From Chloroflexota bacterium (GTDB taxonomy: Bacteria > Chloroflexota > UBA11872 > VXOZ01): a stretch of 64,000 nucleotides of DNA. How positions within the stretch are numbered: the stretch's first letter is position 1; the number at the start of each line of letters is the position of its first letter. The translations under genes and the position numbers were made by a program. A model generated the notes under the pieces. That model made no database searches, was not told the DNA's origin, and saw only the letters and a program-made list of their open reading frames with translations. Below, piece by piece: positions 15,213-50,444 of the stretch. Location: positions 1,568,001-1,632,000 of the forward strand of contig OY760183.1 in assembly GCA_963663275.1 (NCBI GenBank). The letters run 5' to 3'.

Positions 15213-16514
15213 GTGGTGCTTGTGGGCGGCTTTGCCGTGCTCATCGCGGTGGGGACGCTGCTCCTCATGCTGCCGCCGGCCGCGGCGTCCGGCAGGTCCA
15301 CGTCCTTCATCGATGCTCTCTTCACCGCCACGTCGGCGGTATGCGTAACCGGGTTGGTGGTGGTCGATACCGGCGAGCACTGGAGCGCGTTCGGCCACGC
15401 GGTCATTCTGGCGCTCTTCCAGCTTGGCGGCTTCGGTTTCATGACCGGCTCGATTCTGATTTTGATGATTCTCGGGCAATCGATCCGGCTGCGCCAGCGT
15501 GTCCTGATGCGCGAAGCCCTCAACCTCTCCAACATCGGCGGCATTGTGTCCATCGTGCGCAATATCGCCATCTGGACGTTGGTGGTGGAGGCCGCCGGCG
15601 TGCTTGCGCTGGCGCTCTTCTTCGCGCGGGAGAACGAGCCGGGGCACGCCCTCTGGATGGGGTTGTTTCACGGGGTATCGGCTTTCAATAACGCCGGATT
15701 CGACCTGATGGGCGGCTTTTCCAGCTTGACCCAATATCGCAGCGAAGGGTTCCTGCTTACGGTTATCGCCCTGTTGGTGGTATTCGGCAGCACCGGGTAC
15801 GTGGTGTTTGAGGATATGGCGCGCTCGCGGCGCTGGCTGCGCCTGAGCCTGGAGACCAAGCTCATCGTGCTCGTAACCGGCGCGTTGTGGCTGATTGGCG
15901 GCCTGGCGTTCTTCTGGCGCGAACGGTCCAATCCGCTTACGCTGGCCGGCGAAGTGTGGCACGTGCAACTCCTGGACACGTTCTTCCACAGCGTGGCCGC
16001 CCGCACCGCGGGGTTCGTCGCGCTGCCGGTGGGCAGCATGACCGAGGATACGACGTTCTTCACCATGGTGCTCATGCTCATTGGCGGCGCGCCGGGCTCC
16101 ACGGCGGGGGGCATCAAAGTGACGACTTTTGCTATTCTCATCGTGACGGTCATGGCGGTGATGCGCGGCAGAACGCGCATCACGATACTGCGCCGCACGC
16201 TGCCCCAGGAAGTGGTGCTGCGCTCGCTTGCCATCACTTTGCTGGCCGCCTTGCTGCTCATCGCCGTCAGTTGGGTGCTGGCGGAGTTCGAGACCGGCGG
16301 CTTCATGCCGGTGCTCTTCGAGGCCGCGTCGGCGCTGGGCACGGTAGGCATGTCGTACGGCATAACGCCCCAGCTGCACGACGTTAGCCGTCTCGTGCTG
16401 GTGGCGGCCATGTTCGTGGGGCGACTCGGCCCGCTTACGCTGGTGCTGCTGTTAGCGCAGAAGACCCAGCGCGAGCATCTGCAATTTCCTCGTGAATCGG
16501 TACGTGTGGGATAG
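15213..16514 (+). CDS. Trk/Ktr potassium uptake membrane subunit (KtrB/TrkH); start uncertain
   Basis: Pore loops 'FTATSAVCVTGL', 'SAFNNAGF', 'RTAGF', 'GSTAGGIK', 'SALGTVG'. Confidence 0.93.
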   Translation: MVLVGGFAVLIAVGTLLLMLPPAAASGRSTSFIDALFTATSAVCVTGLVVVDTGEHWSAFGHAVILALFQLGGFGFMTGSILILMILGQSIRLRQRVLMREALNLSNIGGIVSIVRNIAIWTLVVEAAGVLALALFFARENEPGHALWMGLFHGVSAFNNAGFDLMGGFSSLTQYRSEGFLLTVIALLVVFGSTGYVVFEDMARSRRWLRLSLETKLIVLVTGALWLIGGLAFFWRERSNPLTLAGEVWHVQLLDTFFHSVAARTAGFVALPVGSMTEDTTFFTMVLMLIGGAPGSTAGGIKVTTFAILIVTVMAVMRGRTRITILRRTLPQEVVLRSLAITLLAALLLIAVSWVLAEFETGGFMPVLFEAASALGTVGMSYGITPQLHDVSRLVLVAAMFVGRLGPLTLVLLLAQKTQREHLQFPRESVRVG

Positions 16515-16524
16515 GAGTGACGCC

Positions 16525-17175
16525 ATGCCGAATCAACAGATCGCGGTGATCGGGCTGGGCCGCTTTGGCACCAGCGCGGCTATTCAGCTTGCCAGCCTGG
16601 GCTACGACGTGCTGGGGGTGGACAAGAGCGCGGACAAGGTGGAAAGCATGTCGGACGAGCTTACCCACGTGGTGCGGGCGGATACGGCAAATGAAGGCGC
16701 GCTGGAAGAACTGGGCATTCGCAACTTCGACGTGGTGGTGGTGGGCATTAGCTCGGACGTGCAGGGCAGCATCATAACGACGTTGATCCTCAAGCATCTG
16801 GACGTGCCCTACGTAATCGCCAAGGCGCGCGACGAACTCCACGGCGAAATCCTGGATAGGATCGGCGCCGACAAGGTGATCTATCCGGAGCATGAAGCCG
16901 GCGTGCGCATTGCGCATACGTTCATCTCCCACGCCATCATCGACTATGTCGAAGTGGTGCCCGGCTACGGCGTGAGCAAGCTCAAAGTGCCCGATCGGTT
17001 CGTGGGCCGCTCGCTGCAGGTGCTCGGCTTCGGCGAGGACAGCGGACTGCGCATTTTGATGATCGGACGCAACGACAGTGTGGTGCACGACCCCAAACTG
17101 AGCGAACGCATCCAGGACGGCGACGTCTTGATGATGGTGGGCGAAGACCGGTACTTGAGCGAGATGGAACTCTAG
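16525..17175 (+). CDS. Trk/Ktr potassium uptake RCK subunit (KtrA/TrkA)
   Basis: 'VIGLGRFG' Rossmann motif; 'GADKVIYPEHEAG'. Confidence 0.93.
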   Translation: MPNQQIAVIGLGRFGTSAAIQLASLGYDVLGVDKSADKVESMSDELTHVVRADTANEGALEELGIRNFDVVVVGISSDVQGSIITTLILKHLDVPYVIAKARDELHGEILDRIGADKVIYPEHEAGVRIAHTFISHAIIDYVEVVPGYGVSKLKVPDRFVGRSLQVLGFGEDSGLRILMIGRNDSVVHDPKLSERIQDGDVLMMVGEDRYLSEMEL

Positions 17176-17274
17176 CGGTCAGTCTTGCGCGGTCGCTTCA
17201 CGCGGGGAGCGCGAGACTGCCAGGCAAATGGCGCGTGAAGGCTTGACGAAGTTCGCGCTATGTGGTTAAATGGA

Positions 17275-17617
17275 ATAGGAGAGGGCGTGAGTCCTCGAAA
17301 CGGCACCAAGGAGGGAGGTGAGCGATGAGAGGCATACGCTTGCCGTTGGATAACCCGAGAGTGCTGTACGGTGTTTGGCAAGTGGACAGGTAACCCTCCA
17401 TCCGCGCACGATTGAGACAGGTTCGATGCGGGTGGAGGGCCAGACCGCAGGGTGGCGGGTTTTGCCGCTCGATGCGTAGCAACGGCCGGACGTCTGAAGA
17501 GCCCGGCCGCGCTAAAGCTGACGCCCCAGTCCAGGGCAGTTGAATACGGCGAAACTACGGCCCGACCCATCATTGGGAATGAAGCGCGCCTCGGATACGT
17601 TCCGAGGCGCGCTCTTT
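17275..17617 (+). ncRNA. Candidate structured RNA (long hairpins, hammerhead-like core, 22-codon ORF)
   Basis: TTGACG at 17243; hairpin CCCTCCATCCGC/GCGGGTGGAGGG (17394-17439); CTGAAGA..GAAAC core (17494-17555); strong terminator at the end. Confidence 0.45.
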
Positions 17618-17620
17618 GGT
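17583..17620 (+). terminator. Intrinsic terminator
   Basis: 13-bp perfect stem AGCGCGCCTCGGA/TCCGAGGCGCGCT followed by CTTTGGTT. Confidence 0.7.
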
Positions 17621-17717
17621 TGGCGAGAGGGGGCTTGGTTCTGCCCGCGTGCGGCACGCTGTGCGCGGCGCGCCGGGCGGCGGCAGAGTGTCAACCCACG
17701 GAGATCCGGAGAGAGTC

Positions 17718-18050
17718 ATGAGGGATATGCGCGCGCGCACACCGGCGGTGATCTCACGCGGCGAGGCTGAGCGCACGCTGGTGATCGAATGGCGCGACGG
17801 CCACGTTACGCGCTACGACTGGGAAGCTTTGCGCCGCCTGTGCCCGTGCGCGCTCTGCGCGGGCGAAATGGGCGCGCCGGGCACAATGAAACCCGGCACG
17901 ATTCTGATGGCTAGCCAGACGTTTCTCGAATCGATCGAACAGGTGGGCAACTACGCGGTGCGCATGCAGTGGGAAGACGGCCACAACACGGGAATCTACA
18001 CGTTCGACGGCCTGCGCGAGCAATGTCCGTGCTGTGCGGAAGCCGGATAA
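17718..18050 (+). CDS. DUF971 / gamma-butyrobetaine hydroxylase N-terminal-like protein
   Basis: 'IEWRDGH', 'LRRLCPCALC', 'VGNYAV..WEDGHNTGIYTF..LR'. Confidence 0.88.
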   Translation: MRDMRARTPAVISRGEAERTLVIEWRDGHVTRYDWEALRRLCPCALCAGEMGAPGTMKPGTILMASQTFLESIEQVGNYAVRMQWEDGHNTGIYTFDGLREQCPCCAEAG

Positions 18051-31031: not shown

Positions 31032-31123
31032 TGGCGGAGAGGGTGGGATTCGAACCCACGACGCCCTTTTGGGGGCGTAATCGTTTTCGAGACGATCTCC
31101 TTCAACCACTCGGACACCTCTCC
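31032..31123 (-). tRNA. tRNA-Ser(CGA)
   Basis: GGAGAGG acceptor stem, anticodon loop CT-CGA-AA, long variable arm, GGTTCGAATCC, encoded CCA. Confidence 0.95.
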
Positions 31124-50347: not shown

Positions 50348-50444
50348 CGGAGGCGCATGGGAGTCGAACCCACCCAGGACGGGAGTAGCCCGCCCCGCAG
50401 ACGGTTTTGAAGACCGCGAGGCCCACCGGGACCCGAGCGCCTCC
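50348..50444 (-). tRNA. selC: tRNA-Sec(UCA)
   Basis: 8-bp acceptor stem GGAGGCGC/GCGCCTCC, anticodon loop CT-TCA-AA, long variable arm, GGTTCGACTCC; CCA not encoded. Confidence 0.93.

Follow-up and report, generated by a model that had tools for sequence, protein, structure and literature searches.

A selected short peptide and a covarying RNA fold in a candidate translation-coupled transcript of Chloroflexota

What kind of gene occupies the interval between ktrA and the DUF971 gene in a Chloroflexota genome? The window, which is the whole 64,000-nucleotide stretch of contig OY760183.1 (assembly GCA_963663275.1) analyzed here, carries in this interval a structured-RNA unit with a very short open reading frame (ORF). 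A first-pass annotation had proposed an autonomous transcript of ~340 nt, possibly a new non-coding RNA (ncRNA) or a dual-function RNA, and this proposal is supported by the conservation and covariation of the unit and by the lack of a strong Rfam match. As judged from sequence comparison, the unit is a member of an undescribed Chloroflexota family. Its firm features, on the same comparative evidence, are a translated peptide with a selected C-terminus, a conserved folded RNA, and a fixed geometry between the codon of a conserved aspartate and a hairpin, termed Pa, which follows the ORF. The dual-function option is favored over a plain ncRNA because of the clear protein-coding signature of the ORF. 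We tentatively propose, with a little less than even confidence, that the unit is a stand-alone gene (~17278–17620, from its own promoter to its own terminator) that produces a bifunctional, translation-coupled transcript; it may represent a new kind of translation-linked regulatory RNA.

The 22-codon ORF pointed out by the first-pass annotation is present and bears the signature of a coding sequence. A 401-nt query detected the unit as a single copy in the genome of the window (G000) and in all 16 other genomes of the genus, with 69–83% identity, and in 0 of 24 genomes from five other families of the class. Among 17 species of the genus, residues 5–21 of the peptide (RLPLDNPRVLY-x-VWQVD) are invariant except for position 16, which is G or C, and nine of codons 5–21 vary, eight of them in a purely synonymous manner. 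The stop codon is TAA in 14 species, TAG in one, and TGA in one, and it is lost in the last one, where six more codons follow. The synonymous-site changes and the interchange of TAA, TAG, and TGA indicate that the ORF is translated. Outside the genus, the glycine of the C-terminal motif G-V-W-Q-V-D is found in 33/33 members, encoded by three different GGN codons, and both valine positions use all four GTN codons. The residues W, Q, V, and D are invariant in an alignment of 19 peptides (A3), an invariance that is partly by construction because the pattern used to pick the peptides required W-Q-[VI]-D. Coding evidence free of this bias is provided by the free third positions, the conserved frame and stop, and the members found with an RNA model; moreover, although the ORF ranges from 12 to 28 codons in length, 56 genomes preserve its start, frame, and stop. 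Collectively, we can conclude from this evolutionary signature that the small ORF is translated and selected as a peptide. The selected part is the C-terminal ...[L/F/Y]-G-x-W-Q-[V/I]-D, followed by zero or one variable residue and the stop; this end of the peptide is conserved, whereas the N-terminus varies in length and sequence.

Is the RNA itself also under selection? The predicted fold of 17270–17620 has a free energy of −158.5 kcal/mol, compared to −134.9 ± 5.2 kcal/mol for shuffled sequences (z = −4.53), and none of 100 shuffles was as stable. RNAalifold applied to the 17 sequences of the genus gave 89 pairs, 23 of them with a compensatory change. Within the genus, covariation was counted on an 86-pair copy of this structure in the 17-species alignment (A1): 22 of the 86 pairs show a compensatory (double) change, compared to 9.5 ± 1.9 in shuffled alignments, and 0 of 500 shuffles reach 22. 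Slid controls of A1 show 3–6 compensatory pairs, and 97.7% of cells are paired, compared to 95.0% in shuffles. The inner hairpin of the first-pass annotation, which is Pa, is real and covarying; it corresponds to helix 6 of A1, with 13 pairs, 99.1% of cells paired, and two compensatory pairs. Two other helices proposed at that stage are not supported. The first, AACGGCA/TGCCGTT around the ribosome-binding site, is paired in 73.9% of cells, and the second, the outer AACCCG/CGGGTT, reaches 97.1% of paired cells without any compensatory change and competes with a helix having four compensatory pairs; together, the two helices score no better than shuffles. In RNA form, AAYCCG in the ORF (17353–17358) can pair with CGGGUU (17458–17463), the 5′ strand of the closing helix of the 3′ domain, and the untranslated RNA of the genus could adopt this modeled pairing as an alternative conformer. 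The 3′ domain has 29 pairs in its own alignment (A2, model R1), of which 12 are compensatory, and R1 matches G000 at 1585444–1585580, which corresponds to the domain as located in the window (Table 1).

The family was searched in 401 sampled Chloroflexota genomes from 217 genera. A six-frame search with the 22-residue peptide gave weak matches outside the genus; 15 of the 16 loci read share the design and one is false (G132 lies within the loose tally of this search). The peptide profile built from A3 matches 50 of the 401 genomes and 32 of the 217 genera at E ≤ 0.01, a figure in which G301 enters through the tally alone. Among 21 further loci that were read, 19 carry the motif by pattern, and one more, in G017, does so in altered form: in this genome of the same class, the ORF at ~530–610 of locus L145 (+), found via the RNA model, ends in YGVRQVDR before the stop, with Trp replaced by Arg. 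The covariance model R2 (alignment A4), which comprises the W-Q-V-D codons, Pa, and the 3′ domain of the main type, matches every collected member. It also matches 14 of 151 sampled genomes, a lower bound because R2 under stricter filters missed the genus itself, and four of these had been missed by the peptide profile. The peptides of these four finds end in ...LGRWDFDS, ...FGVWQIDG, ...FGVWQIDR, and ...LGVWQVD, each directly before the stop, and in the first of them (L152, G116) Q-V is replaced by D-F. The variants YGVRQVDR and LGRWDFDS suggest that Trp and Gln-Val are not strictly essential.

In all, members were read in at least 39 genomes outside the genus, from 21 family codes, and share a common design: an ORF of 12–28 codons ending in ...G-x-W-Q-[V/I]-D-(X)-stop, Pa, a covarying 3′ domain, and a terminator. 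Some families are dense, with the element in 11/11, 5/6, and 5/7 genomes. The genus model R1 found 17 of 98 genomes of the class, all within the genus, suggesting that the 3′ domain has diverged too far for this model elsewhere. A back-translated core of the genus peptide, a pattern that is too specific, found 15 stretches among all species genomes, all in metagenome-assembled genomes (MAGs) of Chloroflexota of the same genus, and the general motif followed by a stop and NNCCC found 0 stretches in viral contigs. In one member (G294, L076 99–182, +), a single ORF carries the motif two times (...LGAWQVDQAFLGVWQVD) and stops immediately behind the second Asp, which looks, from its sequence, like a 10-codon internal duplication.

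The anatomy of the element was described on 50 members, of which 17 belong to the genus and 33 lie outside it. After Asp, one codon and then the stop follow in 45/50, the stop follows directly in 2/50, and 5–6 extra codons are present in 3/50. In these three members, in which the stop is lost, the ORF runs 5–6 codons into Pa and the position of Pa is unchanged; in 50/50 members Pa begins 0–7 nt past the Asp codon, wherever the stop sits. The stop itself is TAA in 28 members, TAG in 11, and TGA in 11, and the shortest peptides have 12–14 residues. All eight modeled pairs of Pa are compensatory across the family, with 97.3% of cells paired, and the stability of the hairpin ranges from −10.9 to −31 kcal/mol. 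The 3′ domain of the genus is positionally equivalent to helices P1, P2, and P4 of R2. In the family alignment of 47 matches, 23 of 25 pairs are compensatory, compared to 10–14 pairs in slid controls; 94.1% of cells are paired, compared to 72.4% after shuffling, and there are 181 double-change cells, compared to at most 31 in slid controls. This alignment was fitted to the model and hence leans towards the modeled structure.

The unit also appears to have its own start and end. The promoter named in the first-pass annotation, with a −35 TTGACG and a weak −10, is in the sequence; TTGAC is invariant in 17/17 species and the −10 is conserved. It scores 9/12 in a simple −35/−10 scan, and a separate promoter scan of the region, which demands A at position 2 of the −10, gave 0 sites. 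Transcription would start near 17278, closely followed by the 5′-terminal hairpin (six pairs in A1, 100% of cells paired, one compensatory pair), which is likely a 5′ stabilizer. The very strong ribosome-binding site GGAGGGAGGTG is likewise present and conserved in 17/17 species, and in the family members read, a Shine-Dalgarno-like run is found ahead of the start codon. The 13-bp terminator corresponds to helix 13 of A1, which covaries with six compensatory pairs; 10 of the 13 pairs of its stem (17583–17613) are G-C and its tail is T-rich. One terminator-like site in the region is no more than shuffles give (mean 1.4). By themselves, then, the terminator is not above chance and the promoter was undetected in one scan, and both signals therefore count via their conservation. 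Counted without a shuffle control, a promoter-like site of at least 9/12 lies upstream at a similar distance in 41/50 family members, and 48/50 have a terminator-like hairpin and a T-rich tail downstream. The 40 members with both sites imply transcripts of 250–398 nt.

Table 1. Coordinates of the unit, its parts, and other features of the window.
Feature	Position in the window	Strand	Description
Structured-RNA unit	17243–17622	+	Between ktrA and the DUF971 gene
Promoter	17243–17271	+	TTGACG 17243–17248, 17-nt spacer, TTAAAT 17266–17271
Extended −10	17263–17271	+	TGG-TTAAAT; TGG directly before TTAAAT
5′-terminal hairpin	17281–17296	+	GAGGGC-GUGA-GUCCUC; helix 1 of A1
Shine-Dalgarno sequence	17310–17320	+	GGAGGGAGGUG; 4 nt before AUG
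Small ORF	17325–17393	+	22 codons and TAA; MRGIRLPLDNPRVLYGVWQVDR
C-terminal motif	17370–17387	+	G-V-W-Q-V-D; variable last codon AGG at 17388–17390
Hairpin Pa	17394–17439	+	CCCTCCATCCGC/GCGGGTGGAGGG; begins 1 nt past the stop, 7 nt past the Asp codon
3′ domain	17444–17580	+	Two-part closing helix, two inner hairpins, small 3′ hairpin
Intrinsic terminator	17583–17622	+	13-bp stem, 5-nt loop, tail CTTTGGTTG
ktrA	16492–17175	+	TrkA_N/TrkA_C; upstream of the unit
DUF971 gene	17718–18050	+	DUF971/GBBH-like_N; downstream of the unit, same strand
Long-arm tRNA	31035–31123	−	89 nt; Rfam
Selenocysteine tRNA	50349–50444	−	Rfam, 67.1 bits

Does the unit belong to a known RNA or protein class? Rfam 15 at gathering thresholds has no match in the unit region, and at E ≤ 10 the only one is BcKCsr2, on the terminator, with 17.3 bits compared to a gathering threshold of 40. 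Among 14 members from other lineages, the only match is ctRNA_p42d, with 21.9 bits compared to 50. ARAGORN predicts no gene in 17150–17750. The first-pass annotation had seen no signature of transfer-messenger RNA (tmRNA), RNase P RNA, or signal recognition particle (SRP) RNA, which agrees with the location of these RNAs elsewhere in G000 (tmRNA at 3064905–3065264, 170.3 bits). Like tmRNA, the unit is a structured RNA of ~350 nt with a short internal ORF; in contrast, its ORF starts with AUG behind a Shine-Dalgarno sequence, and the RNA lacks a tRNA-like end. The 6S model RF00013 has no match anywhere in G000, at a low sensitivity (its control was positive in 5/14 known genomes); the consensus fold is multi-hairpin, unlike 6S RNA, which forms a rod of ~180 nt with a central bubble. 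The peptide of the window has no match in Pfam-A or NCBIfam, the seven of the 19 aligned peptides long enough to scan have none in Pfam or NCBIfam even at E ≤ 10, and PDB chains show no match at E ≤ 10. The motif GVWQVD and this element were not found in the literature, a search in which the catalogues and supplements of dual-function RNA reviews, which could bear on novelty, were not covered.

Traces of the unit were found in sequencing runs. The window stretch is complete in one run and partial in several sponge-metagenome runs. In three metatranscriptome runs, one contig each of 268–275 nt aligns to 17325/17337–17486 with 15–18 differences and continues for 110–121 letters past 17486, which are too diverged to align; the consensus of these loose ends resembles the closest relative, L002. 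The contigs, which show neither ends nor level, give a weak hint that a close relative of the unit is expressed. Run X16 gave no aligned sequence, and the ktrA and DUF971 flanks have no cover in the three RNA runs, an absence that is not evidence.

How could a peptide and an RNA act within one transcript? According to the preferred reading, the ORF and the 3′ RNA would be coupled through translation. The base of a hairpin ~6 nt past the Asp codon reaches the ribosome entry site when V-D is in the peptidyl (P) and aminoacyl (A) sites, and from this distance and the size of the ribosome footprint, Pa would meet the ribosome entry at just that moment. A ribosome ending the ORF would thus have V-D, followed by X or the stop, in these two sites as its leading edge melts Pa. 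The conserved C-terminal residues could act in the exit tunnel or at release, so that the ribosome dwells at V-D-(X)-stop; the dwelling ribosome would keep Pa open and thereby determine the state, the lifetime, or the accessibility of the 3′ domain. The latter would be the trans-acting part, binding a protein, a ligand, or other RNAs.

Codon usage at the end of the ORF bears on such a pause. The last codon encodes Arg in 10 of the 17 genus members, always as AGG or AGA; outside the genus it does so in 16 of 33 members, and 15 of these 16 use AGG or AGA. The two codons account for 11 of 133 Arg codons in five neighboring genes. By the usage of the same genes, 9 of the 22 ORF codons are rare (AGA twice, ATA, TTG twice, GGT, GTT, CAA, and AGG), where rare means below 20% of the usage of the amino acid and ATA usage is not tabulated. 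The rare AGG/AGA last codons may be signs of slow decoding. A more specific form of the preferred reading, speculative and on balance unlikely, is a ribosome-arrest-gated riboregulator, in which the nascent peptide, Pa, and often AGG/AGA would park the ribosome and so gate the transcript's own 3′ domain for action in trans.

The known systems share parts of this design. TnaC and other leader or arrest peptides control attenuators, TnaC acting on tnaAB through Rho. TnaC resembles the family in its short ORF, the conserved Trp and Asp near its C-terminus, its termination-linked action, and an RNA structure just downstream; the residue spacing differs, and the family has an intrinsic terminator and no conserved downstream operon. 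The bypass of phage T4 gene 60 combines a nascent-peptide signal, a stop, and a hairpin beginning at the stop, whereas no coding frame resumes downstream in the family. Bypassing of this type into a second ORF was excluded as a candidate, since the 3′ region has compensatory changes and indels that are not multiples of three. RNAIII, which encodes delta-hemolysin, is a dual-function small RNA (sRNA). Other dual-function sRNAs, namely SR1/SR1P, SgrS/SgrT, and VcdRP, are short independent transcripts, as the family members may also be, and like the family they have an ORF and an RNA structure that are conserved across species, as far as the excerpted accounts go (PMC3526287, PMC8672173, PMC12310071, PMC12612679). 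The family differs from them in having no Rfam match, a shorter ORF, conservation of the C-terminus alone, and a stop that abuts a hairpin; its small ORF is judged to be translated by its evolutionary signature.

The closest parallel is PepNL of E. coli, encoded upstream of pepN. In the excerpts of the report describing it, this peptide of 14 residues is held on tRNA-Asp in the P site and arrests at the stop, the arrest depends on the penultimate Ile13, and sense codons in place of the stop are also decoded slowly (PMC11890864). In E. coli K-12, the ORF upstream of pepN ends in ...A-T-G-I-D-TGA. PepNL and the family thus share a very short ORF (14 codons compared to 12–28) and a β-branched hydrophobic residue plus Asp beside the stop (I-D-stop compared to [V/I]-D-(X)-stop). 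Both also have hydrophobic or aromatic residues 5–10 positions upstream, which PepNL, in the same excerpts, needs for a mini-hairpin (PMC11890864). There is no sequence homology between the two. PepNL acts with release factor 2 (RF2) at UGA and is relieved by read-through with Trp-tRNA, whereas the family uses all stops, usually one residue after Asp; PepNL regulates the downstream pepN, whereas the family has a terminator and no conserved downstream gene. By analogy, the ribosome could plausibly pause at V-D-(X)-stop much as it does on PepNL. The family shows the C-terminal conservation of a short ORF that is expected of arrest peptides and lacks their control of a downstream gene in cis.

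Several observations weigh against coupling through a pause. The likeness to PepNL consists of two residues and a similar length rather than homology, and the variable residue after Asp and the use of all three stops are unlike the RF2- and UGA-specific PepNL. Known arrest peptides control a downstream gene, and no conserved one was found in 14 lineages or among the neighbors of 27 loci. Blocking the first 25 nt, up to and including the 5′ arm of Pa, in predicted folds of 23 members lowered the mean pair probability only from 0.63 to 0.50 for P1 and from 0.47 to 0.44 for P2, and individual members differ in the direction of the shift, so that no consistent refolding of P1 or P2 was seen. The finds made with the RNA model show W replaced by R and Q-V replaced by D-F, and the members were mostly found by peptide queries, which makes the invariance of the motif partly circular. 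Furthermore, the spread is patchy, with 0/25, 0/24, 0/25, and 0/28 genomes in four well-sampled family codes, and the RNA contigs all come from one study and could reflect DNA carry-over.

Could the peptide instead be the product in its own right? An ordinary small-protein gene, in which the free peptide of 12–28 residues binds a partner through its C-terminal YGVWQVD and the RNA structure stabilizes, insulates, or terminates the message, is a possible if rather doubtful explanation; a free micro-protein with either a stabilizing or an independently acting RNA is nearly as likely as a translation-coupled RNA. The strong purifying selection on the peptide fits such a gene, as do the very strong Shine-Dalgarno sequence and the 5′ hairpin, both typical of stable mRNAs, and the lack of a clear RNA switch in the occupancy folding test. 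Small proteins on short transcripts are common, according to the excerpted sources (PMC12310071, PMC12612679). However, 23 of 25 covarying pairs across 21 family codes are not expected of a purely stabilizing 3′ untranslated region, members of 12–14 residues are very small for a stable free cytoplasmic peptide, and an ORF rich in rare codons is odd for a bulk product. The three members that carry 5–6 residues past the motif, with the rest unchanged, also argue against it.

The short peptide, whose N-terminus varies and whose aromatic-rich C-terminal core is invariant, could also be a precursor in which the conserved C-terminus is the core of a ribosomally synthesized and post-translationally modified peptide or of a peptide-derived cofactor. 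Modified-peptide precursors normally cluster with their enzymes, and the conserved neighbors include no gene of the maturase type (radical SAM, cyclodehydratase, protease, or exporter); in addition, 12–14 residues leave no room for a leader and a core, and no precursor model of NCBIfam or Pfam matches. This explanation is improbable.

Gene neighborhoods bear most directly on the idea of a cis-acting leader or attenuator, in which the ORF and the terminator would regulate transcriptional read-through into the DUF971 gene. This gene follows the unit on the same strand, with its start ~100 nt past the terminator, and the order ktrB-ktrA-unit-DUF971-endonuclease III is kept in 15/15 genus relatives (Chloroflexota/Chloroflexi MAGs). 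However, the DNA 3′ of the terminator (~98 nt, from 17622 to the DUF971 start) gives no alignment within the genus, and no conserved antiterminator was seen. Outside the genus, the flanking genes differ in 14 lineages, several being on the opposite strand; they include genes for a cyclic-di-AMP (c-di-AMP) receptor, transketolase, gamma-glutamyltranspeptidase, a succinate dehydrogenase flavoprotein, LytR, phosphofructokinase, aconitase, a sulfatase, a Rieske protein, ferritin, and SRP54, among others. The gene that comes after the element changes from case to case (the c-di-AMP receptor, the flavoprotein, an oxidoreductase, or the sulfatase, for instance) or is on the opposite strand. An all-against-all comparison of the neighbors of 27 loci found shared genes only inside three groups of four related genomes, a pattern consistent with vertical inheritance, local synteny, and the lack of a functionally linked partner. 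Because the neighbors differ between lineages, the unit does not seem to serve a particular downstream gene, and because the same design occurs in unrelated gene neighborhoods, it does not seem to be a leader for the DUF971 gene, which makes this alternative very improbable. Last, a purely non-coding RNA with the ORF as a by-product of RNA-level constraint is scarcely credible, although predicted helices (A1 helices 2–4) join part of the ORF to the Shine-Dalgarno region and upstream bases and several ORF codons are nucleotide-invariant in the genus, since the changes sit at synonymous sites, the Gly and Val codons of the motif differ freely in their third positions from family to family, and the start, frame, and stop persist throughout. 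Two further candidates were dropped, selenocysteine recoding because all three stops are used, and a switch between Shine-Dalgarno and anti-Shine-Dalgarno pairing via the CCCUCC arm of Pa because only the genus has this arm sequence.

Sponges, soils, sediments, and bioreactors harbor abundant Chloroflexota, for which, to our knowledge, almost no regulatory RNAs or small proteins have been described. The family can be searched easily with a six-residue peptide signature and a covariance model, being present in about one in eight sampled genomes of the phylum, and both the peptide and the RNA are, on either account, missing from current annotation pipelines. Were the peptide to act within the ribosome, arrest peptides would no longer be confined to gene-specific leaders but would include stand-alone RNAs, and structural work would gain a very short natural arrest motif. 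If the riboregulator gated by ribosome arrest proves true, it would be an arrest peptide that targets its own RNA, conserved across a bacterial phylum, and the RNA could report translation capacity or a metabolite that modulates the arrest. As a free micro-protein, the peptide would rank with the shortest conserved proteins of bacteria and would have a conserved RNA partner domain.

Some individual neighborhoods are of interest in themselves. In the family codes f64 and f33, the element lies just downstream of a gamma-glutamyltranspeptidase gene, and in f27 it lies upstream of a gene for a pyridine-nucleotide-disulphide oxidoreductase with a rubredoxin-reductase C-domain; the loci behind these observations are L089, L093, L155, and L159 (G385, G350, G149, and G176). 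In G104, the gene just downstream of the element encodes a cyclic-di-AMP receptor, PF06153 (L088 3556–3870, −). KtrA is a K+ uptake subunit that is regulated by c-di-AMP in other bacteria. The parallel between the receptor gene in G104 and ktrA in the window may be a coincidence, as no other locus has a gene related to K+ or c-di-AMP.

In the window, ktrB (TrkH family) lies upstream of ktrA, and endonuclease III is encoded downstream of the DUF971 gene on the opposite strand. The two genes ktrB and ktrA (15213–17175, +) overlap by 23 nt (16492–16514), which suggests translational coupling. The only Rfam matches in the window are two tRNAs, both outside the unit (Table 1), and the selenocysteine tRNA makes the use of selenocysteine by this organism probable.

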